This document shows, one piece after another, positions 400 through 62,873 of a DNA stretch of 64,000 bases. Below the pieces are notes generated by a model. It searched no databases, was not told the DNA's origin, and saw nothing but the letters and a program-made list of their open reading frames with translations. Source of the DNA: Patescibacteria group bacterium (lineage in GTDB: Bacteria > Patescibacteriota > Doudnabacteria > UBA920). The DNA lies in contig DAIMCS010000003.1 in NCBI GenBank assembly GCA_036726225.1, forward strand, positions 9,769-73,768, in the 5' to 3' direction. The position numbers were made by a program, and so were the translations under genes. Each line of letters opens with the position of its first letter. The stretch's first letter is position 1.

Positions 400-434
400 C
401 CCCTCCCTTTATGGGAGGGGTTAGGGGAGGGTGG
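400..434. repeat. GC-only palindromic element, family A (CCCCTCCCTTTATGGGAGGGGTTAGGGGAGGGTGG), intergenic copy
   Basis: A stem-loop plus a half-copy tail. It abuts the stop codon of the minus-strand ORF at 435. Related copies are at 24715..24749 and 40279..40361, with variants at 10187..10225 and 18093..18119. Confidence 0.7.
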
Positions 435-10175: not shown

Positions 10176-10240
10176 GCCCGAACCAACCTCTCCCCCGACC
10201 CCTCTCCAAACTTGGAGAGGGGAGGAATGAATTGTAAACT

Positions 10241-18092: not shown

Positions 18093-18126
18093 AATCCCTC
18101 CCTAATATGGGGAGGGATTTTAATTT
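18093..18126 (+). terminator. terminator hairpin (family A-like: AATCCCTCCC-taatatg-GGGAGGGATT)
   Basis: 10-bp stem followed by TTAATTTT. Confidence 0.55.
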
Positions 18127-24467: not shown

Positions 24468-25811
24468 ATGAAAGTAGATATTGCCGGATTAAAAGTTGAC
24501 GCAATCAGTAAAGCAGAATTACTGATTGAGGTAATTTCCAGAATAAAAGCAAGCCAAAAAACCTGGGTAACTACGGTGTACTCGGAGTTTTTGTATGCGG
24601 CCTTAAAGGACCCAAAAATAGTTGAATTGTTAAATAAGGCCAATATTGCCGTGCCCGACGGCATTGGGATTTTTTGGGCGAAAAAATATTTGGAAATTCC
24701 GCTTTCTTTTCATTCCCCCCCTTTAAAAAAGGGGGGGTTAGGGGGGGTTAAATACTGGCTTATGGTTTTAAAGGCTTGCTGGCAAATTAAGTATTCTTTG
24801 GCCGCGATATTATTTAACTCCAAGTGGATAAAATCTGCTCTGCCTGAAAAAATAGTGGGCGCAGACTTAATTTGGGATTTGGCCAAACTTGCATCGGATA
24901 ACAATCTTTCAATGTTTTTACTCGGTGGCCACGGCGACACTCCAGAAATTGTTGCTGCGGCAATGAAAGCAAAATATAGCGGCTTAAAATTTGTGGGATC
25001 ATCCAACAAGAACCCAGGTGACCCTTCAACCATAACAGAAATAAATAGCTTAGCACCCGATATTTTGCTGGTGGCTTACGGCCCGCTTCGGCAGGAGAAA
25101 TGGATTTTTGAAAACTTGCTTCATCTGAATGTAAAATTTGCTATGGGCGTTGGCGGCTCGTTCGATTACATTGCGGGTAAAAAATCTGCTCCGCCAAAAT
25201 TTATCCGCTCCTTTGGCCTGGAATGGTTGTGGCGGCTTATTACCCAGCCGCAACGTTTTAAAAGAATTATTAACGCGACTTTTGGGCTGGCGTGGCTTTT
25301 GTGGCACTACAAAGTTTTTAGCAATTTGCCCTTTAGGCCAAATGTAGCAACTGTTATAACGAACAAAGAAAATAAAATTTTGGTTTGCCAGCGCAACCCA
25401 AAAGATTTCCACGTGGACGTTGTCACAACTAAAGATAATTTAAAAAGCAAAAATTATTGGCAACTGCCGCAGGGCGGCGTTGATGTCAAAGAAGATTTGA
25501 TTGCAGCAGCAAGACGTGAAGCCTTTGAGGAAACCGGCCTTAAAAATTTGGAGCTTTTTGGGGTATCAACATCCACCCACAGCTATGTTTGGAATAATGC
25601 GTTGCGGGGTTTTTGGAAAAATCGTGACAAAGCAAACGTTGGCCAAAAGCAAAACATTGTTTATTTTAAATTTTGGGGAAGTGATAATGAAATAAAAGTT
25701 GACGGAGAAGAATTTATTAATTATAAGTGGGTTAAAATAAGTGAGCTTGAAAAGGCGGTACATCCCGAGCGCTTGCCTTTGGCTAAAATAATAGTGGTAG
25801 ACTTAGCTTGA
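24468..25811 (+). CDS. WecB/TagA/CpsF-family glycosyltransferase fused to a C-terminal NUDIX hydrolase
   Basis: N-terminus: PDGIGIFWA...LLGGHGDTPEIV... (WecG/TagA fold). C-terminus: GGVDVKEDLIAAARREAFEETG, the Nudix box. One continuous 447-aa ORF. Confidence 0.65.
   Translation: MKVDIAGLKVDAISKAELLIEVISRIKASQKTWVTTVYSEFLYAALKDPKIVELLNKANIAVPDGIGIFWAKKYLEIPLSFHSPPLKKGGLGGVKYWLMVLKACWQIKYSLAAILFNSKWIKSALPEKIVGADLIWDLAKLASDNNLSMFLLGGHGDTPEIVAAAMKAKYSGLKFVGSSNKNPGDPSTITEINSLAPDILLVAYGPLRQEKWIFENLLHLNVKFAMGVGGSFDYIAGKKSAPPKFIRSFGLEWLWRLITQPQRFKRIINATFGLAWLLWHYKVFSNLPFRPNVATVITNKENKILVCQRNPKDFHVDVVTTKDNLKSKNYWQLPQGGVDVKEDLIAAARREAFEETGLKNLELFGVSTSTHSYVWNNALRGFWKNRDKANVGQKQNIVYFKFWGSDNEIKVDGEEFINYKWVKISELEKAVHPERLPLAKIIVVDLA
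24715..24749 (+). repeat. family A GC-palindrome inserted in frame in the WecB domain, encoding SPPLKKGGLGGV
   Basis: CCCCCCCTTTAAAAAAGGGGGGGTTAGGGGGGGTT. It sits in an insertion of about 40 aa relative to canonical WecG/TagA, between the DGxGxxWA motif and the PEKIxGxDL motif. Confidence 0.6.
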
Positions 25812-29115: not shown

Positions 29116-30288
29116 ATGAAATTAAAAAAATATTTTTTACTGCTCTTAATCCTCGAGATATTTTTTTCCTATGCTCCGGCTTTTGCGCAGGAGCTTCCGC
29201 CCTATAATTATGCGGAAAACGCCGGGGTTTCGGAGCAAATAAAAAAATATTTGTGCGCGCCCAAAGACCCGGAAAAAAGCCAGACCCAAACGGACATTTT
29301 GGATTCCCAGGGCAACCCAATTACTTTTGACCCAAACCAGGCCGCGTTTAACAACACCAACAGCAGCGTGCTTTATGAGTGCATTAACCGTTTGTATAAA
29401 TTTGCAATTATTTTAGCCTGCGTTGTCGGCGTATTTTTTATAGTCATTGCCGGCTATGTTTATATGGCGGCAGAAGGCAACCAGGAGTCTGTAGACAAAG
29501 CCAAAAATATTTTAACTACCACAATAACCAGCATAGTCATTTTGCTTGCCGGGTTTGTGTTGCTTAAGGCTATTAACCCCGACCTTGTGGAGTTCCACTC
29601 CATACAGCCGCCGGGCATTAAAATTGGGGATTTAAAACTGCCTGAAGACACAATTGGCCAGCAGCCTCCCTATGAACCCGTGGGGGGAGTCTGTAAAGAT
29701 GAAAAGGTTTCGAATATTTGTGAAGGTGTGACCGGAGGCTGTACACAAAATGTTTGTTCAGGTTATTCTTCCGCTGTTGCTGCGGCAGCTGCAAAGTTCC
29801 CCATAACCGGAGCTGATACCCAAGCTTTAATTAAAAGCATAATGTACAATGAGTCCAGCTGCGGGCGAAATTTAGAATCACCTGCGGGCGCGTGCGGCAT
29901 TATGCAGCTTTTGCCTGACACTGCTGACAGGTTAAAAGGCTATTGTGGTGTAGCAACCAAAATAGATTGCGCTTGGTTAAAAAATCCGGCCAATTTTGAC
30001 AAAAGCATTTGTATTGGAGCGGCTTACTTAAAGAACTTAAGTGAAGGCGCTTGTAGCAGTAATAATGAGAGTAACTTAGTAAGGAACCTGGCGGCAGGGT
30101 ATAATGGCGGCTCTAAAGCTTGTGAGGCCAGCGTGAGCTGTGGTGGCGAGGCGGGCTGCGCAGCCCAGCCAATGCGTAAATGGGAATGTACTTGGGATAA
30201 CACAGAACGTACGCAGTGCAACACGGGTTATTTAGAAACCAGGTCATACGCGCCTAAAGTATTGGGATGCTATCAACTAAACAAATAG
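29116..30288 (+). CDS. secreted lytic transglycosylase (SLT/VirB1-like) with a signal peptide, a two-helix hairpin of VirB2/TrbC-like topology, and a Cys-rich C-terminus
   Basis: Signal peptide ...APAFA|Q. Two hydrophobic helices separated by EGNQESVDKAKNILTTT. SLT motifs MYNESSCGR, GIMQL and AAGYNGG. More than 20 Cys residues. Confidence 0.6.
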   Translation: MKLKKYFLLLLILEIFFSYAPAFAQELPPYNYAENAGVSEQIKKYLCAPKDPEKSQTQTDILDSQGNPITFDPNQAAFNNTNSSVLYECINRLYKFAIILACVVGVFFIVIAGYVYMAAEGNQESVDKAKNILTTTITSIVILLAGFVLLKAINPDLVEFHSIQPPGIKIGDLKLPEDTIGQQPPYEPVGGVCKDEKVSNICEGVTGGCTQNVCSGYSSAVAAAAAKFPITGADTQALIKSIMYNESSCGRNLESPAGACGIMQLLPDTADRLKGYCGVATKIDCAWLKNPANFDKSICIGAAYLKNLSEGACSSNNESNLVRNLAAGYNGGSKACEASVSCGGEAGCAAQPMRKWECTWDNTERTQCNTGYLETRSYAPKVLGCYQLNK

Positions 30289-30351
30289 CTTGTCGCATAA
30301 GATACATTGTGCGACGTTATAAATATTTCGTTTTCGCTCTCCCCTATAAAT

Positions 30352-30381
30352 AAAAGCTCCAACTGCTTAGTTGGAGCTTTT
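30352..30381. terminator. bidirectional terminator
   Basis: AAAA-AGCTCCAA-ctgcttag-TTGGAGCT-TTTT. Confidence 0.6.
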
Positions 30382-31630
30382 AAATTAAATCTATTTGTTT
30401 TGTTTTCCTTAATCCCCTAACAAGGGCAGGTAAAATTTTTAACAGGTAATCAATATCTCTCTTTTGGGTAGATTTTCCTAAGGTAAACCGAATGCTGCTT
30501 TTAGCTAACTTTTTTGAATGACCGATCGCTAATAATACGTGTGACGGGTCGAGCTGACCTGTGCTGCAAGCGCTTGCTGTTGAGGAATTTATGCCATAGC
30601 TGTCTAAATAAAACATCAACGACTCCCCTTCCGTATTTTTAAAGGAAAAGTTGACGTTATTGGGTAATCTAAACAATGGTAGATAAAAATCGCGGCCGCG
30701 ATTTTTATCACCTTGATTTAAGGTAGGTCCATTTAAAATTGCATCCGGAATCTGTTTGCTTATTTCAGAAATTAGACGGCCGCTTAGTTTAAAAAGTCTT
30801 AGATTTTCTTTTTGCTTTTTTTTTGAAGCTAACTCGAGCGCTTTGGCCAAACCCACTATCCCCGTAACATTCTGTGTGCCGCTACGCAGCCCATTTTCCT
30901 GCCCGCCTCCGTAAATTAGCGGTTTAAGTTTGACCCCCGAGCGCACATACAAAAACCCAGTTTGTTTTGGGCCATAGATCTTACTGCCGTTTACCGACAT
31001 TAAGTCTACCCCAAGCCTGTTTACATCAAGGTCTAAAAATCCGGCAGCCTGGCAGGCATCGGTATGAAAAATTATCCGTTGCAGGTTATTTTTTATCCGT
31101 CTGTTGTTTTCCGCTTTAAGCCATCGTCCAATTTCGGCTATTGGCGCAATAGTTCCTATTTCGTTATTAGCGTACATTATAGAAATTAAAACTGTCTCCA
31201 GCCTTACAGATTTTTTTAGTTGGTCTAAATTTACAAACCCCTCTTTATCTACCCTAACCAAAGTCGTCTTGTACCCTTCCCCTGCCAGGGCTGCAAAAGA
31301 ATTTATAACGCAGTGGTGTTCTGTTGCCGAAGTAATAAGATGCGTTTTTTTGTGTAGCCGGGCAACGCCAAAAATTGCCAGATTAACACTTTCCGTCCCG
31401 CCGGCCGTAAAAATAATTTCCGAAGGCCTGGCACCAATTAAGTCGGCAACAACAGCGCGCGATTTTTCAACAGCGTCATTAGCCTCCCTGCCTTTTTTAT
31501 AGAGCGATGAAGGGTTGCCAAATTTGTCATTAAAAAAAGGTTCCATAGCCGCTTTAACTTCCGGGTCAACCGGAGTGGTGGCCGCATGGTCTAAGTAAAT
31601 AGTTTTTTTTGGAGTAATTTTTGGCAGCAT
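30380..31630 (-). CDS. iscS: cysteine desulfurase (IscS/NifS class V aminotransferase)
   Basis: PLP-lysine region NGSKIYGPK. Active-site Cys region SSTASACSTGQLDPSHVL. Confidence 0.8.
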   Translation of the reverse strand: MLPKITPKKTIYLDHAATTPVDPEVKAAMEPFFNDKFGNPSSLYKKGREANDAVEKSRAVVADLIGARPSEIIFTAGGTESVNLAIFGVARLHKKTHLITSATEHHCVINSFAALAGEGYKTTLVRVDKEGFVNLDQLKKSVRLETVLISIMYANNEIGTIAPIAEIGRWLKAENNRRIKNNLQRIIFHTDACQAAGFLDLDVNRLGVDLMSVNGSKIYGPKQTGFLYVRSGVKLKPLIYGGGQENGLRSGTQNVTGIVGLAKALELASKKKQKENLRLFKLSGRLISEISKQIPDAILNGPTLNQGDKNRGRDFYLPLFRLPNNVNFSFKNTEGESLMFYLDSYGINSSTASACSTGQLDPSHVLLAIGHSKKLAKSSIRFTLGKSTQKRDIDYLLKILPALVRGLRKTKQIDLI

Positions 31631-31672
31631 AAAAATCTAAGGGTCATTATAGCCCATAAAGCGTGTTTAGAC

Positions 31673-31701
31673 TAGACGCCGGGCTTAATAATTGCTATAC
31701 T
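31673..31701 (+). promoter_or_regulatory. candidate promoter: TAGACG, 17-nt spacer, TATACT
   Basis: Sequence match at the start of the ORF-free region. Confidence 0.3.
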
Positions 31702-31707
31702 GTCTGA

Positions 31708-32224
31708 ACGAAAAACCGCAATCAGCTGCAACTGGATAGTGCTTGGATGCAAAACCTTTCGGTAAGCTTTTTTGAGTTTAGGGGCGCCGATGAAGGTTTC
31801 CAGCCGGCTGAATAAGGACAAACCCCCAATAAAAGGGTCGGCGGATAAAGGAGGAAGTGCACAACGGAGGACCACATCCTGGTTCGTTTCAGCGCAGTTA
31901 ATGTGGACGCGACTTACCCAACCGCGTGTTATACCACTTAATGGTCTAAAACGAGCGCAACAGGCAATACCTGTCATGCATCACATATGCATTATTACGC
32001 ACAACCAAAGGAAAACTGGCTGAAAAGGGCCGGGTACGAGCCGAGTACATTTGGGCCCACGGATAGCCAGGGTTGTCAGGAAAAAGAAACGCCGGGTTTG
32101 TTGAAGTTGCGTATTGGTAATTTAAAATTTTACGCAATTTACAAAAATAGACTTTGGAAGTTTCTGTGTCCAACCACCTTCTTTATTCGCCGCGCGGGCT
32201 ACTTCACAGCCGCGCGGTTTTTTT
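31708..32224 (+). ncRNA. candidate large structured noncoding RNA of about 520 nt, class unassigned
   Basis: No credible ORF; only short overlapping basic ORFs. GC is elevated relative to the AT-rich intergenic norm. Many local hairpins. It ends in a plus-strand intrinsic terminator, CCGCGCGG-N12-CCGCGCGG-TTTTTTT, at 32190..32224. Confidence 0.35.
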
Positions 32225-32621
32225 ATTTGCTGGATTTTATGTAGCCTGCCGCCACCGCTTCTTTTTCTGTATTAAAACACTGTTCGGCATTGGTGCGTTC
32301 GTAAAACGCGCCGCCCTTAATGTGGTAAATTTTTTTGCCACCCGAAGCAATGTTCCCTTTTATTAAGCAATCTGAAACGGCCGTTCCGGTCGCAGCTCCT
32401 GCCACTATCCCCTGCTGGGCGGCTACATCGGCCGCTGGTTTTTTCGCTTCCGCCGTGGTATAATTATTTTGTTTCTTATAAGCATCCCGTCTCATCCCCT
32501 TTTCATAGCTACCGGTTCCAAAACCCACAAAGAAAACAACTACAAAACTTGCCGCAATTATGAGCTTAGTTTTGTTTTCTTTTTCTCTTACCCAGCTTTT
32601 TAGTTGTTCGTAGGTTAGCAT
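32223..32621 (-). CDS. membrane-anchored hypothetical protein with a C-terminal KGNIxxGGKKIYHxKGGxxYxxT...EAxAAGY domain
   Basis: N-terminal TM segment IIAASFVVVFFVGFG. The C-terminal motif is recognisable, but I cannot name the family with confidence. Confidence 0.45.
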   Translation of the reverse strand: MLTYEQLKSWVREKENKTKLIIAASFVVVFFVGFGTGSYEKGMRRDAYKKQNNYTTAEAKKPAADVAAQQGIVAGAATGTAVSDCLIKGNIASGGKKIYHIKGGAFYERTNAEQCFNTEKEAVAAGYIKSSK

Positions 32622-32676
32622 TTGGCTTATTATAGCACAAATTATTGGCCGTAAATAAGGTCAATTTACAAATTAC

Positions 32677-34050
32677 ATGCGTTACGCTTTTATTTTAGGG
32701 AGGGTTTATACTTTATCTGTGGCCGAGCTTATTGCCGTTTTGGAAAAACCTGACCAAAGCCTGGTTTTGTCGCCTCTTCGCAAAGAGCCGGCCGAGGGCG
32801 GTTTGGAGGAAGCGGTTAAGATTTTAGAGGCCTCGGAAGAAGTTTTAATTATAGAAACCCCGGCTGCTTTAAACGTAACTAATTTACAAAAAAAACTTGG
32901 CGGCGTAATAAAAATTTTAGAGGTTGTAGATATTATAAAAAAGCGCCAGAATGATTCGGTTAATTTTGCACTCAAGCATTATTTTAAACCCAGCGTCCTA
33001 AAGAAGCAATTTTTTAAGGAATACAAAGGCAAGATGCAATTCGGCGTGAGCATCTATCTTTTAGATATGAATTTGCTTAAAAGACCGGAACCCAAACCCG
33101 GCGACAAGTTCCAGTCTTTTAATTCCATTTTTTCCGAACCCAAACGCATTGGCATGATGATAAAAAACGGGCTAACTGAAAGCGGCTTAAGCGTTCGGTT
33201 GGTTTTGCCTGAATACAATTCCCTCTCCTTAGCTTCGGTTGTAGTGACAAAAAATTTACTGCTTTCCAAGGGCGCGGAAATTTCTATTTTAGCAGCGCAG
33301 GATAAAATTTTTACGGCTAAAACTTTAAGCGTACAGGATTTTGAAGACTACGGCAGAAGGGATTACCAACGTCCGGTTAGGGATGAAAAACAGGGCATGA
33401 TTCCGCCTAAGGTTGCCCAAATTATGTTAAATTTGGCCAATTGTAAATCCGGGGATACTATTTTAGACCCATTTTGTGGCATAGGGACCATTGTCCAGGA
33501 GGGCTTGCTTTTAGGTTACAGGATGATAGGCAGCGACATAAACAAAACCGCAATAAAAGGCAGTGAACAAAATTTAGAATGGTTTAGAAACCGCTATAAA
33601 ATCGCTCCCGGGAAATACGGCGTGGAGGTCAGCGATGCTACCAAGGTTTCCGATCTTATTGCTAAATCTAACAATAAAATTTCAGCCATAGTTACCGAAG
33701 GTACCCTAGGGCCTATTTATGGCCAGTACCCCAAGGTTGAGGAAATTGCCAAAAATTTTAAAGATCTGGAAAAGCTTTATAAAGCCAGTTTTAAGGAATT
33801 CTCTAAATTTTTACCTTCCGGCGGCCGCGTGATTATGTGCGTGCCGGCTTACAGGCGCGGCCGGGGTGACTACGAGCAGATGCCCAAGCTTGACTTCGCA
33901 CTAGCTTTGGGATATAATCAGTTAGATATTATTTCTCCTGTAATTGCCAAAAAGCTTAAATTTCTTAGGCTTACAGAGCGAAAAAGCGCAATTTACGACC
34001 GAAAGGACCAAGTTGTAGCCAGGGAAATAGTGATTTTTGAGAAAGTTTAA
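32677..34050 (+). CDS. THUMP-like / UPF0020-type RNA (N2-guanine or N6-adenine) methyltransferase
   Basis: SAM-binding DPFCGIGTIVQEGLLLGYRMIGSDIN. Confidence 0.5.
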   Translation: MRYAFILGRVYTLSVAELIAVLEKPDQSLVLSPLRKEPAEGGLEEAVKILEASEEVLIIETPAALNVTNLQKKLGGVIKILEVVDIIKKRQNDSVNFALKHYFKPSVLKKQFFKEYKGKMQFGVSIYLLDMNLLKRPEPKPGDKFQSFNSIFSEPKRIGMMIKNGLTESGLSVRLVLPEYNSLSLASVVVTKNLLLSKGAEISILAAQDKIFTAKTLSVQDFEDYGRRDYQRPVRDEKQGMIPPKVAQIMLNLANCKSGDTILDPFCGIGTIVQEGLLLGYRMIGSDINKTAIKGSEQNLEWFRNRYKIAPGKYGVEVSDATKVSDLIAKSNNKISAIVTEGTLGPIYGQYPKVEEIAKNFKDLEKLYKASFKEFSKFLPSGGRVIMCVPAYRRGRGDYEQMPKLDFALALGYNQLDIISPVIAKKLKFLRLTERKSAIYDRKDQVVAREIVIFEKV

Positions 34051-34133
34051 TTAACCACGAACACACAAAAAACACGAAAGCCACAAAATCAGATTTCGTG
34101 AAGTTAGTGCAGTTCGTGAGTTAGTGGAGAATT

Positions 34134-34412
34134 ATGGCACATAAAAAAGCCGGAGGCTCAACAGCGCTAGGACGCGATTCAGTCTCCAAACGCTTAGGCG
34201 TTAAAATTTTTGGCAACCAAGCCGTAAAAAAAGGACAAGTAATTGTCCGCCAACACGGCACTAAATACTCCCCCGGACGTAATGTTAAAATTGGCGGCGA
34301 CTCTACTTTGTACGCCCTAACCGACGGAATGGTAAAATTCCAGAACAAAATGGTTAAAAAGTTCCATGGAAATTTACGCAGAACCAGAATCGTAAACGTG
34401 GAATCCAAGTAG
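34134..34412 (+). CDS. rpmA: 50S ribosomal protein L27
   Basis: [27 protein letters not shown]. Confidence 0.9.
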
Positions 34413-34453
34413 ATCCCATTCCCGCGCAGGCGGGAATCTATAATTTAAGATTT

Positions 34454-34481
34454 AAAAACCCCCGAGTAACGGGGGTTTTTT
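34454..34481. terminator. bidirectional terminator
   Basis: AAAAA-CCCCCG-agtaa-CGGGGG-TTTTTT. Confidence 0.6.
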
Positions 34482-34482
34482 G

Positions 34483-34737
34483 TTATCCATACTTTATCTT
34501 AAAGGCAAGGATTGATAACACAAATATTTCCGTAATAATGTTTGCAATATATATCGGCGGTTCGTGAAGCAATAATCCATAAACAATCCATAGCGCTACT
34601 CCTATTGCCAAAACTGAGTACGTTGACAAAGACAAATCTTTAGTGTGTTTGGTCTGCCATACTTTTAGCAATTGAGGCAGCTGGGAAATGGTAGTCAATG
34701 TTGCACCCACTGTACCAATAATAAAAATAAAATCCAT
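34483..34737 (-). CDS. SemiSWEET / PQ-loop sugar transporter (three TM segments)
   Basis: 84 aa. The PQ-loop motif ISQLPQLLKVW sits in TM1. Confidence 0.7.
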   Translation of the reverse strand: MDFIFIIGTVGATLTTISQLPQLLKVWQTKHTKDLSLSTYSVLAIGVALWIVYGLLLHEPPIYIANIITEIFVLSILAFKIKYG

Positions 34738-34738
34738 A

Positions 34739-36436
34739 CTATTTTTTTAGTTTAACCACAGCCTTCATAAACCCCGCAAAAAGCGGATGCGGAGAAAGCG
34801 GGCGGGAAAGGAATTCCGGATGGAATTGTGTTCCCACAAAGAACGGATGGTTTTTAAGCTCAATTATTTCCACCAGCTTGCCGTCCGGCGTGGTGCCGGA
34901 AATCACCAGCCCGGCCTTAACTAACTGGTCGCGATATTCGTTATTAAATTCAAAACGATGGCGGTGGCGCTCGTTAATTTTAGCCTTGCCGTTTTTGCCA
35001 ATCCACTTGGCATCCAAGTAAGCTTTTTCTGTAACTGTTCCGCGCGAAATTATGCAATCCCAACCGCCCAACCGCATAGTGGCGCCGTATTCCCTGTTAA
35101 GCAGTTTCTTTTCCTGGTCCGGCATAATATGAATTACCGGATGCGGGTTGTCGTCGTCCACTTCCGTAGTGTTGGCTTTTTTTAATCCGGCAACATGGCG
35201 GGCATATTCAATCGTGGCCATTTGCATTCCATAGCATAAGCCTAAATACGGTACTTTGTTTTCGCGCGCGTACTTTACGGTTTCTATCATACCTTCTGTT
35301 CCCCTGCTGCCAAAACCACCGGGCACAACTATCCCGTCAAAACCGTGTAAAGTTTTCTTTGCGCCGTGTTTTTCTACATCCAGCGCAGAAATCCAGTGCA
35401 AATTAGCCTTAACATTATTCGCCCAGGACCCGTGCTTTATGGCTTCCACAACCGAAATGTATACATCGGCCAGTTTATAGGCGCCTGTCTCATAGTATTT
35501 GCCGACTACAGCAATCTCAACTTCGCGTTTGGATGAATTAATCCTGCTAATTTTGTTTATTAAATCTTTCCACTTTTTAAGCTTGGCCGCTTTTGGCTTC
35601 ATACCAAATTTTTGTAAAATTTTGTCCGTGAGCTTTTGTTGGTCAAAATTCATCGGCACCCTGTAAATACTGTCCACATTAGGCGCGGCAATAATATTTT
35701 GTGCCGGCACATTGCAAGTCCAGGCTAAAGTTTCTTTTCGCCTGTCATCCACCGGTTTTTCCGCGCGGGCTATTAAAAAGTCCGGCTGTATGCCGCTGCC
35801 AATTAACAAGCGGACCGATGTTTGCGCGGGCTTACTCTTCATTTCGCCAATGGAAGGAGGTGTGGGCAAATAAGCTACGTGAATATGCAAGACATCCCGT
35901 CCGTCGCGGTATTTCATAATCCGGTTGGCTTCCATAAACAAAATATTTTGGTACTCCCCTACTGTTCCGCCAATTTCCGCAATAACAAAATCCGCCTTAC
36001 GTTCCCGGGCAGCGGCTTCCAGGCGGCGGATAATTTCTTCGGGCACATGGAGGGCCACTTCAACATCTTCGCCGTCATACTCAAAATTTCTTTCTTTTTT
36101 TATTATATTTTGGTAAATTTGGCCGTTGGTAATGTAGTTGGAAGCAGACAGGTCCGCATTCATAAACCTTTCGTAATTTCCCAAATCCTGGTCAGTTTCC
36201 ATACCGTCTTTAGTCACAAACACTTCCCCGTGTTCCTGCGGCCTTATTGTGCCTGCGTCCACATTTAAATACGCGTCCATTTTTACCGGCGCAACCCTAA
36301 AACCCCTAGATTCCAAAAGTGCCGCCAAAGAAGCGGTTGTTACACCTTTACCAACACTAGATATTACTCCGCCGGAAACAAAAATGAATTTAGTGTCTAA
36401 CTTTTTCGCTTTTCTTGGCTTGATATGATATGACAT
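34739..36436 (-). CDS. pyrG: CTP synthase
   Basis: FVSGGVISSVGKG and a glutamine-amidotransferase C-terminal domain (GLCYGMQ). Confidence 0.9.
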   Translation of the reverse strand: MSYHIKPRKAKKLDTKFIFVSGGVISSVGKGVTTASLAALLESRGFRVAPVKMDAYLNVDAGTIRPQEHGEVFVTKDGMETDQDLGNYERFMNADLSASNYITNGQIYQNIIKKERNFEYDGEDVEVALHVPEEIIRRLEAAARERKADFVIAEIGGTVGEYQNILFMEANRIMKYRDGRDVLHIHVAYLPTPPSIGEMKSKPAQTSVRLLIGSGIQPDFLIARAEKPVDDRRKETLAWTCNVPAQNIIAAPNVDSIYRVPMNFDQQKLTDKILQKFGMKPKAAKLKKWKDLINKISRINSSKREVEIAVVGKYYETGAYKLADVYISVVEAIKHGSWANNVKANLHWISALDVEKHGAKKTLHGFDGIVVPGGFGSRGTEGMIETVKYARENKVPYLGLCYGMQMATIEYARHVAGLKKANTTEVDDDNPHPVIHIMPDQEKKLLNREYGATMRLGGWDCIISRGTVTEKAYLDAKWIGKNGKAKINERHRHRFEFNNEYRDQLVKAGLVISGTTPDGKLVEIIELKNHPFFVGTQFHPEFLSRPLSPHPLFAGFMKAVVKLKK

Positions 36437-39439: not shown

Positions 39440-40624
39440 TCAGGCAGTTTTCCCGCCCGCTGCCTGTTCTAAATATTTTTCCACAAGTTCGTCCAATTCC
39501 CCGTTTAAAACACTATCCGGGTCGCTGGTTTCAAAGTCAGTCCTGTGGTCTTTAACCATTTTGTATGGATGTAAAACGTAAGAGCGGATTTGGTTGCCCC
39601 ATTCTGCAGATTTAAACTCCCCACGGATCTCCTGTTTTTCTTTTTGCAGCTTTTCTTCTTCCAGGGTTTTAAGCCTGGACATTAAAATTTTCATTGCCAC
39701 TTCCCTGTTTTGGTGCTGGCTGCGTTCGTTTTGGATGGAAACTTTTATGCCGCTTGGAATATGTGTAATGCGAATGGCCGAATAGGTTGTGTTAACGCTT
39801 TGTCCGCCGTGCCCGCTGGCGGTGTTGGCCTCAATTTTTAAATCTTTTTCATCTACCTTAAATTCTTCTTTTTCTTCCAAAAGCGGCAGGAGTTCTAAAA
39901 GCGCGAACGATGTTTCCCGGGTGTGAGCGGGGTTGAAGGGCGATAATCGTACGAGCCTATGTACACCCGCTTCGCTTTTTAAAAGTCCATACGCATAAGT
40001 CCCGTGGACTTCCACCACTGCTGTCTTAACCCCGTTTTGGTCCCCCCTTGAGAGTTCCAAAACTTCCGTAGTAAAACCTTTGCGTTCGCAATAGCGCAAA
40101 AACATTCTAAGCAGCATTTCGGCCCAGTCCTGTGCGTCTACTCCGCCGGCTCCGGAATGAATGGAAAAAATTGCGTTATGGTCGTCGTATTTTTTGGAGA
40201 GCAAGGCGACAAAACGGTTTTGTTTGTATAAATTTTCTAAACTTTCAATTTGTTTTTTTAGATAATCTAAATCATTTTCACCCCTCCCTAGCCCTCCCCC
40301 TAAAGGGGAGGGAACGGCTGCAGCTTCCCCTCCCTTGATGGGAGGGGTTAGGGGAGGGTGGTTTTCTTTAGATAAGTCTTTAACTAACTCCAAATTCTCA
40401 ACAACTTGTTTTTCCAAATTTTGCCAAAAATCGTAAAACTTTTTTAGCTGGTCGTACTCTTGGGAAACTTTTTTAGCATGCTGATTGTCTGCCCAAAAAT
40501 TTGGCTGCTGCATTAAATCTTCCAATTCCAAAATCTTTTGCTCTTTTTGCGGCAAATTTAAATGGATTTTAAGATTTAAGATTTCAGATTTAAGATTTTC
40601 AAGGCGCTTAATAAGGTCGTTCAT
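39440..40624 (-). CDS. prfB: peptide chain release factor 2 with no programmed frameshift, carrying an in-frame 28-aa insertion
   Basis: SPF and GGQ motifs (RLSPFNPAHTRETSFA, SGHGGQSVNTT). 394 aa against a typical length of about 365. Confidence 0.85.
   Translation of the reverse strand: MNDLIKRLENLKSEILNLKIHLNLPQKEQKILELEDLMQQPNFWADNQHAKKVSQEYDQLKKFYDFWQNLEKQVVENLELVKDLSKENHPPLTPPIKGGEAAAVPSPLGGGLGRGENDLDYLKKQIESLENLYKQNRFVALLSKKYDDHNAIFSIHSGAGGVDAQDWAEMLLRMFLRYCERKGFTTEVLELSRGDQNGVKTAVVEVHGTYAYGLLKSEAGVHRLVRLSPFNPAHTRETSFALLELLPLLEEKEEFKVDEKDLKIEANTASGHGGQSVNTTYSAIRITHIPSGIKVSIQNERSQHQNREVAMKILMSRLKTLEEEKLQKEKQEIRGEFKSAEWGNQIRSYVLHPYKMVKDHRTDFETSDPDSVLNGELDELVEKYLEQAAGGKTA
40279..40361. 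repeat. family A GC-palindrome as two inverted units, inserted in frame in prfB and encoding NHPPLTPPIKGGEAAAVPSPLGGGLGRGE
   Basis: CACCCCTCCCTAGCCCTCCCCCTAAAGGGGAGGG...CCCCTCCCTTGATGGGAGGGGTTAGGGGAGGGTGG. Confidence 0.7.
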
Positions 40625-62280: not shown

Positions 62281-62575
62281 TTTTATTTTCTTTAAGTGGC
62301 GTCATCCTGAGCGTAGCGAAGGATCTTTTTTTGAGATGCTTCACTTCGTTCAGCATGACGCCGATATTTGTAGTATATAAAATTTTTCCTAAAAAGACAA
62401 AATAAAACCCTCTCTGTCAAGCTCAGAGAGGGATCCGTGTCGACCCGCCAAAGCGGCGCCGATTTGCTTCCAAGAAAAAAATAATTTTTTGCAAAAGAAG
62501 AAGCCCCGTCCTAAGCTACGGGGCTCTTTTGGTCATCCGCGCCTTGTTTTTTACACTGCTTAGGAAGCGGCTTTA

Positions 62576-62675
62576 ATCCGGTGGATTCATTCAAACCTCC
62601 TCGGGCTTGCTTTGCCCGAAATGGCGTAAAAAATCGGCCGTGTGAGTAAAAGACTCTTAATCCGGTGGATTCATA
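62576..62675 (+). promoter_or_regulatory. two copies of an 18-nt imperfect palindrome TTAATCCGGTGGATTCAT (62576..62593 and 62658..62675) upstream of aspS, operator-like
   Basis: AATCC-GGT-GGATT inverted-repeat core. The copies are 82 bp apart. Confidence 0.4.
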
Positions 62676-62873
62676 GTGCCCTTTTGTGGCGGGTACTTAC
62701 ACCCAGATTACTGCACTCAGTTGCTTCATATGCCCTCCTTGGTCACTCCTTAGACCCTCTTATAGATTGGGTCTTAGGAATATTATACAAATTTGCCGTT
62801 TAAGTCAAGGCTTGTTATAATAAATTAAATTAATTTCCCTGCCGATTGTTTATCGGATTTAGGGATAACACAT

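Follow-up and report, generated by a model that had tools for sequence, protein, structure and literature searches.

Three-arm G/C-rich elements in the window

The window analysed here is a 64,000-nucleotide stretch of contig DAIMCS010000003.1 (positions 9,769 to 73,768) from a bacterium of the Patescibacteria, or candidate phyla radiation (CPR), with Candidatus Doudnabacteria as its closest named relatives. Its overall G+C content is 42.4%, and it holds five copies of a repeat unit of 34–37 nt in which a C-rich arm and its G-rich complement are separated by a loop of 3–9 nt, and a further G-rich arm follows after a 3-nt loop (Table 1); the 35-mer form of the unit reads CCCCTCCCTTTATGGGAGGGGTTAGGGGAGGG. 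Two copies are intergenic, one upstream of ahcY (adenosylhomocysteinase) and one between iPGM and ABC-transporter genes. The other three lie in frame within genes: one in a gene for a WecG/TagA/CpsF glycosyltransferase fused to a NUDIX domain, and two as an inverted pair in prfB, encoding release factor 2 (RF2). The second loops of the five copies are TTA (three copies), CTA and TCG, and the prfB pair joins a TTA unit with a CTA unit.

A first-pass annotation, made from the letters of the window, had reported a family of C/G-only palindromes in a low-GC genome, spread over intergenic DNA and coding sequence, with at least three clear copies (at 400, 24715 and 40279–40361) and two shorter hairpin variants. 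The three copies were found where it had placed them, and both the composition and the mixed placement were confirmed in the five three-arm elements. The two variants fared differently: the one at 18093 is indeed a plain hairpin, but the one at 10187 is a full three-arm element with other arms.

Table 1. Coordinates of the repeat elements, their host genes and neighbouring features in the window
Feature	Coordinates	Strand	Description
TM400	400-434	+	Class II triplex motif; intergenic, upstream of ahcY (minus strand, start at 279) by ~120 nt
TM400, Y arm	400-407	+	CCCCTCCC
TM400, loop	408-412	+	TTTAT
TM400, R arm	413-420	+	GGGAGGGG
TM400, loop 2	421-423	+	TTA
TM400, mirror arm	424-431	+	GGGGAGGG
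TM400, tail	432-434	+	TGG
TM10187	10187-10222	minus (class II reading)	Minus strand CCCCTCTCC-AAGTTT-GGAGAGGGG-TCG-GGGGAGAGG; + strand CCTCTCCCC-CGA-CCCCTCTCC-AAACTT-GGAGAGGGG; occupies most of the 65-nt iPGM–ABC-transporter spacer
TM10187, outer mirror arm	10187-10195	+	
TM10187, spacer	10196-10198	+	
TM10187, Y arm	10199-10207	+	
TM10187, loop	10208-10213	+	
TM10187, R arm	10214-10222	+	
WecG/TagA/CpsF-NUDIX gene	24468-25811	+	Glycosyltransferase fused to NUDIX domain
TM24715	24714-24749	+	36-nt in-frame insertion, TCC...GTT; C7-TTTAAAAAA-G7-TTA-G7 (poly-C/poly-G variant)
TM24715, C7	24715-24721	+	
TM24715, loop	24722-24730	+	
TM24715, first G7	24731-24737	+	
TM24715, loop 2	24738-24740	+	TTA
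TM24715, second G7	24741-24747	+	
prfB	39440-40624	minus	Release factor 2 (PCRF + RF-1 domains); one uninterrupted open reading frame
prfB composite insertion	40277-40360	minus	84 nt, in frame; two triplex motifs in inverted orientation
TM40279	40279-40312	minus (class II reading)	prfB unit; loop 2 CTA; T/A shifted in all arms
prfB composite, spacer	40313-40326		14 nt; holds palindrome GCTGCAGC
Second prfB unit	40327-40361	+ (class II reading)	Loop 2 TTA; TM400 sequence with loop TTGAT
Plain hairpin	18093-18119	+	AATCCCTCCC-TAATATG-GGGAGGGATT then TTAATTTT; 14 nt past the HU gene stop
ahcY leader hairpin	300-360	minus	57 nt, G+C-rich, three-tier, interrupted
93-aa open reading frame	435-716	minus	TTG start; stop exactly at the TM400 boundary
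Stretch without long open reading frame	62281-62824		540 nt, none of ≥80 aa; hairpin at 62408-62432
GC-skew peak	~30000-36000		Near 34 kb

The elements stand well apart from chance expectation. A purpose-written scan restricted to G/C-rich arms recovered the five three-arm elements in the window compared to none in each of 200 dinucleotide-preserving shuffles, and in the same scan G/C-rich homopyrimidine/homopurine hairpins gave 12 strand-reads where the shuffles averaged 0.07. Two exact copies of the 22-mer GGGAGGGGTTAGGGGAGGGTGG are present in the window and none in 100 shuffles. All five sites, together with the plain hairpin at 18093, agreed base for base among contigs assembled independently from ENA, JGI and Logan samples, which shows that the elements are not assembly artefacts. 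The predicted DNA hairpins have energies of -9.9 to -11.9 kcal/mol, and the double element one of -25 kcal/mol.

A mirror third arm and a single polarity

The copies had first been described as simple cruciform palindromes. This description had to be replaced, since the third arm mirrors the purine arm and thereby points to an intrastrand triplex motif. In every window copy, the arm after the 3-nt spacer is the reverse, not the complement, of the neighbouring arm, as seen in the pairs GGGAGGGG/GGGGAGGG, GGGGAGGG/GGGAGGGG and GGAGAGGGG/GGGGAGAGG. If the first G arm is paired with the C arm and the second lies antiparallel to it, a G*G:C or A*A:T triplet results at each position in all window copies. 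Judged from the letters, the design is that of a putative single-strand (intrastrand) purine-motif triple helix, and the complementary strand offers the equivalent pyrimidine-motif arrangement. All five copies have the class II polarity, in which the pyrimidine arm precedes the purine arm and the third arm (5'-Y-R-R*-3').

Because the core GGGAGGG is itself symmetric, independent evidence for the mirror rule was sought in approximately 3 Mb of other fetched loci, from which query-selected sites were excluded. In these loci, 181 of the 259 G/C-rich 5'-Y-loop-R-3' hairpins had a third arm that mirrored the purine arm with one mismatch or none, and hairpins of the opposite polarity numbered 19. 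Where the arms were asymmetric, the mirror match was better than the direct match in 102 cases and worse in 5, with 40 ties. Clear asymmetric cases are TCTCCCCC-aagtttg-GGGGGAGA-CAC-AGAGGGGG and TCCTCCCC-cttgt-GGGGAGGA-CTA-AGGAGGGG. The third arm often holds a T opposite an A of the purine arm (GGGTGGGGG, GGGTGAGGG), which the purine motif allows as T*A:T. For viral contigs (IMG/VR), the two arrangements were compared as the fraction of G-arm pairs with an exact upstream C arm; among the matches listed, such an arm preceded 47 of 143 mirror-type pairs vs 4 of 124 direct-type pairs. Taken as a whole, hundreds of natural variants that obey the mirror rule and share one polarity constitute comparative evidence for constraint on the three-arm fold.

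Relation to the BoxC/PIT/TM family

G/C-rich 'triplex motifs' (TM; TMECO in Escherichia coli) were described by Holder et al. 2015 (PMC4666352), having been known earlier as BoxC and then as PIT elements (Hoyne/Maher 2000), with descriptions from E. coli and other Proteobacteria (Bergler 1992; Hoyne et al. 2000). TMECO follows the pattern 5'-CCCTCNCCC N3-6 GGGNGAGGG N3 GGGNGAGGG, a class II purine motif, with a second loop of TTA in type A and of CCG, TCG or CTG in type B units, and units of the two types pair in inverted configuration; 3610 copies were counted across 262 proteobacterial genomes (PMC4666352). As a single-stranded DNA oligonucleotide, the E. coli element adopts a highly stable triplex that has a melting temperature (Tm) of 70-82 °C and was identified by nuclear magnetic resonance (NMR) as a triplex and not a quadruplex, and the element blocks DNA polymerase in vitro (PMC4666352). 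The same study gives neither promoter or terminator activity nor a linked transposase for the elements, reported raised local genomic variability around them compared to controls, with unstable loci, and recorded the motif on neither phages nor plasmids (PMC4666352).

In the ITxF definition of that study, pyrimidine, purine and third-strand blocks are consecutive on one strand, with stems of 6-15 nt and loops of 1-6 nt (PMC4666352). The five window elements have this block order, their stems measuring 7-10 nt and their first and second loops 3-6 nt and 3 nt, TM24715 staying within the loop limit only if TTT/AAA is counted as stem. Their third blocks are compatible with antiparallel binding, all triplets being canonical, and their second loops as well as the inverted pair of mixed types are of the TMECO kind. 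Among the other loci, 99 adjacent opposite-strand pairs were found, the commonest joining a TTA unit with a TCG, CCG, CTG or TTG unit, a combination that echoes the A+B rule of E. coli. The arms of the window copies differ from the strict TMECO pattern, while the prfB insert of a relative (L127) follows it as a perfect type B unit (CCCTCTCCC-TTT-GGGAGAGGG-CCG-GGGTGAGGG). The best explanation of the window elements, and a probable one, is that they are G/C-rich intrastrand triplex-motif repeats of the BoxC/PIT/TM family.

The shared sequence was recovered well outside the window. The 19-mer GGGAGGGGTTAGGGGAGGG is present in at least 120 genome stretches from many phyla, with hosts including Sphingomonadaceae, Planctomycetota (anammox bacteria among them), Chloroflexota, Nitrospirota, Nitrospinae, Chlamydiae, Spirochaetes, WOR-3, Acidobacteria, Bacteroidota, a cyanobacterium and Candidatus Uhrbacteria. 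In nearly all of these stretches, the 19-mer is preceded by TTCCCCTCCC and a loop. A near-identical 37-mer, TTCCCCTCCCTTGATGGGAGGGGTTAGGGGAGGGTGA, is common to low-GC genomes of several phyla, and the copies of high-GC Sphingomonas have the loop GCTTGC. The IMG/VR viral contigs (L258-L373) also yielded three-arm triplex motifs, some of them as inverted pairs spaced 25-60 nt apart.

Copies inside genes

The E. coli K-12 copies are described as 'always intergenic' (PMC4666352), whereas three of the five window copies lie in frame inside genes. Those retained have a length that is a multiple of three and a stop-free frame. The 84-nt insert of prfB is translated as HPPLTPPIKGGEAAAVPSPLGGGLGRGE; two of its six frames are open, of which the gene uses one, and a typical unit has three to four open frames of six. 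Most of 120 close RF2 homologs have no insert in this loop, and others have different G/C palindromes there. When compared to a solved RF2, the match splits in two, with residues 89-120 of the query standing against only 7 residues of the chain. In an AlphaFold model of the protein (mean predicted local distance difference test score (pLDDT) 62, with domain 1 confident), residues 87-113 form a coil between two long confident helices, and pLDDT falls below 50 at residues 89-114. According to the model, the insert occupies a disordered surface loop, where it is tolerated.

Two further observations concern RF2. The programmed +1 frameshift site that is typical of many bacterial RF2 genes is absent from this prfB. 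Among the homologs, P0007 and P0014 read NPHPDPLP-SAAAKAMADK-KGEG and P0010 reads NPHPDPLPKGEG; the first two hold a TMECO-like unit with 10 extra residues in its first loop, which suggests a nested insertion or a loop expansion.

TM24715 is translated as SPPLKKGGLGGV, and at this site all but approximately 6 of 119 aligned homologs read IPLTAK-SYWGK with no insert. Units were also found inside genes elsewhere. A ThiL-like protein of Thermodesulfovibrionia is one in-frame host and a PD-(D/E)XK helicase-nuclease of Nitrospinae has four units, while a GT4 glycosyltransferase and Fpg/MutM of Uhrbacteria also contain units, the host proteins being confirmed by Pfam in all these cases. The four motifs of the helicase-nuclease open reading frame (ORF; L063 42-1292, metagenome-assembled genome contig MHDQ01000032.1) represent three arm types. 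In patescibacterial relatives, units lie in iPGM and at a second WecG site, and across loci with less than 50% G+C, 9 of 47 units are inside ORFs of at least 120 residues. A function of the insert at the peptide level was considered and set aside, because unrelated proteins hold the same units in different frames.

Intragenic copies are known for repetitive extragenic palindromic (REP) sequences and Rickettsia palindromic elements (RPEs) (PMC3733652). A literature search on intragenic triplex motifs and on palindromic insertions in CPR bacteria returned no earlier description, and the presence of several copies in frame inside essential genes of a tiny CPR bacterium is unusual. The units give rise to Pro/Gly-rich low-complexity segments (PPLTPPIKGGE, PLPxxGEGLGEG) in predicted proteins and can seed spurious ORFs, both of which annotators of metagenome-assembled genomes should recognise.

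Gain, loss and inversion between relatives

The sites differ between lineages. The spacer between the iPGM and ABC-transporter genes is 65 nt long and contains TM10187 in the window, compared to 30 nt and no element in a relative with 71% protein identity (L378). With sites empty in relatives both at this spacer and in two conserved proteins, the units stand out as discrete insertions. At the orthologous WecG site of another relative (L375), a GGGAGGGG-type unit takes the place of the G7 type of the window. A prfB ortholog with 81% protein and 72% DNA identity (L126) has the same composite, with CCCCTCCC exchanged for CCCTCCCC in all six arms. In the alignment its 84-nt element is flipped: identity is 73/84 in the flipped orientation compared to 64/82 in the same orientation, and all 48 arm positions agree only when the element is flipped. 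As these differences between orthologs are coherent, the arms change together; the joint change could stem from re-insertion, inversion, gene conversion or selection on the fold, to judge by the sequences compared. Within the sampled population, the sites are invariant. Annotations of overlapping loci showed no transposase Pfam families on the called genes across the window, and no consistent target-site duplication was seen at the five window copies or in the L126 flanks. A GAAAA direct repeat around the prfB copy was considered as a target duplication and judged unconvincing.

The fold would form transiently and only on single-stranded DNA, during replication, repair or transcription. The family may be selfish or neutral DNA, whose structure would be kept because propagation or retention depends on the fold and not because the host uses each site. 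Copies would persist where they are tolerated, including as Pro/Gly-rich protein loops, and those that break reading frames would presumably be removed by selection. That one polarity prevails, and that loops and flanks are conserved across phyla, may point to a directional step mediated by an enzyme or to horizontal spread. A bolder proposal, which we regard as speculative and rather doubtful, is that triplex motifs are ancient pan-bacterial non-coding mobile DNA of which the folded single strand itself is copied or pasted by a conserved host enzyme. If true, it would explain the fixed polarity, the cross-phylum loops and flanks and the three-arm covariation, and also why units have repeatedly settled in frame, and even flipped, in the same permissive loops of essential genes. 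Covariation among the three arms would in that case be the first evolutionary (in vivo) evidence of intrastrand DNA triplexes forming in cells.

Weighing the triplex-motif reading and its alternatives

Several observations weigh against the interpretation of the elements as triplex-forming, mobile repeats. Dimethyl sulphate (DMS) footprinting in vivo detected no triplex for the E. coli element, and the experimental evidence for a triplex belongs to the E. coli sequence (PMC4666352), that of the 8-nt-arm variant being predicted. In the commonest variant, a single flanking G separates mirror from direct symmetry, and the stronger support for the mirror rule comes from the rarer asymmetric arms. 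Triplex stability alone explains neither the 259:19 polarity bias nor the conservation of loops and flanks across phyla. When G-quadruplexes were allowed in ViennaRNA, similar or better energies were obtained for three of the five copies, and the G arms fit a G-quadruplex motif. Lastly, the metagenome collection contained no flipped prfB allele and no empty-site prfB allele with identical flanks. With no insertion polymorphism or flipped allele in the sampled population, ongoing mobility is unproven, and the active mobility implied by the first-pass annotation was not upheld.

A first alternative, proposed by Holder et al., is that the elements are structural DNA signals of benefit to the host, acting as programmed replication pauses or as recombination hot spots that generate adaptive variation. 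Such a role would suit the raised variability of loci with the E. coli element relative to controls (PMC4666352), as well as the flipped orientation of the prfB pair in an ortholog and the uneven presence of the elements among lineages. Beneficial instability is, however, hard to square with copies in the essential genes prfB, iPGM, fpg and thiL and with their invariance in the sampled population, and the wide variation in copy number that the literature reports among close relatives is typical of selfish DNA. A host-beneficial role is unlikely.

The two G arms could instead fold as a three-tetrad G-quadruplex (G3-A-G4-TTA-G4-A-G3) that competes with the hairpin and serves as a DNA or RNA switch. 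The motif is canonical, and the predicted RNA energies of TM400, TM24715 and TM40279 are lower with the quadruplex allowed. Yet the mirror rule is still obeyed by arms that do not have four G tracts, such as AGAGGGA-GTA-AGGGAGA or GAGGGGGA-TAA-AGGGGGAG, neither the mirror arrangement nor the C arm is needed by a quadruplex, and the NMR data on the E. coli element describe a triplex (PMC4666352). We regard this alternative as quite improbable.

Ordinary Rho-independent terminators or mRNA-stabilising hairpins might have converged on G/C-only stems, and the hairpin at 18093, which lies 3' of the HU gene, has no third arm and ends in a T-rich tail, is terminator-like in a scan for such structures; it is no triplex motif in its present form but may have decayed from one. 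The hairpin at 400-420 passes the same kind of scan weakly on the minus strand. A G/C hairpin with a T run at a gene 3' end is not what is seen for the copies at 10187, 24715, 40279 and 40327, however: ORFs contain three of the five three-arm copies, TM10187 precedes a start codon and has no T run, and the conserved third arm has no role in termination. PIT elements also have no terminator activity (cited in PMC4666352). With the same sequence recurring across phyla, the copies are very unlikely to be independent terminators, as the first-pass annotation had also concluded.

That annotation had gone on to compare the copies to REP sequences or MITEs (miniature transposable elements with inverted repeats). 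A dispersed repeat family with insertion, deletion and inversion differences between lineages is what was found, but membership of either group fails, as there is no tag, no transposase and no consistent target duplication. Under the REP/REPIN alternative, the units would be extragenic palindromes that RAYT, an IS200/IS605-like Y1 transposase, excises and re-inserts in the form of single-stranded hairpins. The elements are indeed short palindromes of 20-40 nt, commonly in head-to-head inverted pairs, REPs are known from within genes (PMC3733652), and TTAG or CTAG follows the hairpin. The GTAG or CGTC tag is nevertheless missing: the hairpin is followed by TTA, CTA, TCG or CCG and a structured mirror arm, and its 5' flank is TT. 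No RAYT, other Y1 or any other transposase is present among the called genes of the window, none was reported near the E. coli copies (PMC4666352), and REP families are species-specific, while the 37-mer is near-identical across phyla, which makes this origin highly improbable. Least probable, to the point of dismissal, is a MITE, which as a non-autonomous transposon has terminal inverted repeats and depends for its movement on a transposase from another locus: inverted pairs (the 84 nt of prfB and 99 pairs in other loci) with inverted termini CACC...GGTG and the GAAAA repeat that can be drawn around the prfB copy recall one, but neither a consistent target-site duplication at the five window copies or L126 nor a transposase on the called genes of the window was found, and single 35-nt units without terminal inverted repeats are far below MITE size.

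Neighbouring features

Other features of the window were noted alongside the repeats. The leader of ahcY contains an interrupted hairpin on the minus strand (UUUCCGCCG..GCGCC..CUGCCC-ggccg-GGCAGG..GCGCC..GGCGGAAGU), possibly an uncharacterised leader or riboswitch-like element, with no Rfam match and a fold z-score of -1.4. An S-adenosylhomocysteine (SAH) riboswitch beside TM400, upstream of ahcY, was considered and rejected, given the lack of Rfam support and this z-score of only -1.4. An Rfam scan of 200-520 at E<=1 returned noise only, and a scan of the whole window at the gathering score returned two tRNAs only. The 93-aa ORF that abuts TM400 is uncalled by the source gene callers and has no Pfam match; it may be spurious, or possibly encode a small membrane protein whose 3' end adjoins the element. 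In the 540-nt stretch from 62281, the hairpin CCCTCTCTG-TCAAGCT-CAGAGAGGG is followed by a G+C-rich segment, and the sole Rfam match is sub-threshold (RsaA, 29.5 bits vs a gathering score of 50 bits). The cumulative GC skew peaks where gene orientation changes from mostly plus to mostly minus, which could mark a replication-related switch point.

Comparison with known systems

REP and REPIN elements resemble the window elements in being palindromes of 20-40 nt that often form inverted dimers, are sometimes intragenic and are thought to act as single-stranded hairpins (PMC3733652). They differ in their unpaired GTAG or CGTC tag, their species specificity and the link of the GTAG types to RAYT genes, none of which is shared by the window elements. 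H-DNA has in common with them a purine tract with mirror repeat and the possibility of reverse-Hoogsteen triplets, but consists of two blocks and depends on supercoiled duplex DNA, whereas the window elements have a third, complementary block that makes the single strand self-sufficient.

RPEs, reportedly described by Ogata and colleagues in 2000, are also selfish-looking palindromic repeats that reside in frame in conserved genes, are tolerated as extra surface segments and have no linked transposase. They are said to be 100-150 bp long, AT-rich, restricted to Rickettsia and marked by a CGTC tag, with neither a mirrored homopurine arm nor the potential for a triplex. The window elements do not belong to the RPEs, as size, composition and host differ; the likeness is one of behaviour, in that the units enter conserved and even essential genes as precise in-frame insertions.

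The closest counterpart is TMECO/BoxC/PIT. Shared features are the order of Y, R and mirror R arms, a total length of 34-37 nt, loops of 3-6 nt (first) and 3 nt (second), the TTA second loop, inverted pairs of mixed loop types, T opposite A in the third arm, the lack of a linked transposase and a presence that varies among relatives. In the window the arms are 8 nt long (CCCCTCCC/GGGAGGGG/GGGGAGGG), C7/G7 or CCCCTCTCC, compared to the 9-nt CCCTCNCCC/GGGNGAGGG of E. coli. The host is a member of the Patescibacteria (CPR) with 42% G+C, the density is approximately 5 per 64 kb compared to 23 per 4.6 Mb in E. coli K-12, and three of five copies are in frame in genes, compared to the exclusively intergenic ones of E. 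coli. BoxC/PIT/TM elements have been known for three decades, with neither an established function nor an established mode of spread. The window elements are a new sequence variant of this known kind of repeat in a new host range; together with the copies elsewhere, they widen the range of the family to CPR bacteria and many other phyla with nearly the same 37-mer, and add two behaviours to it, namely in-frame residence in essential genes and, in RF2, flipping between orthologs.

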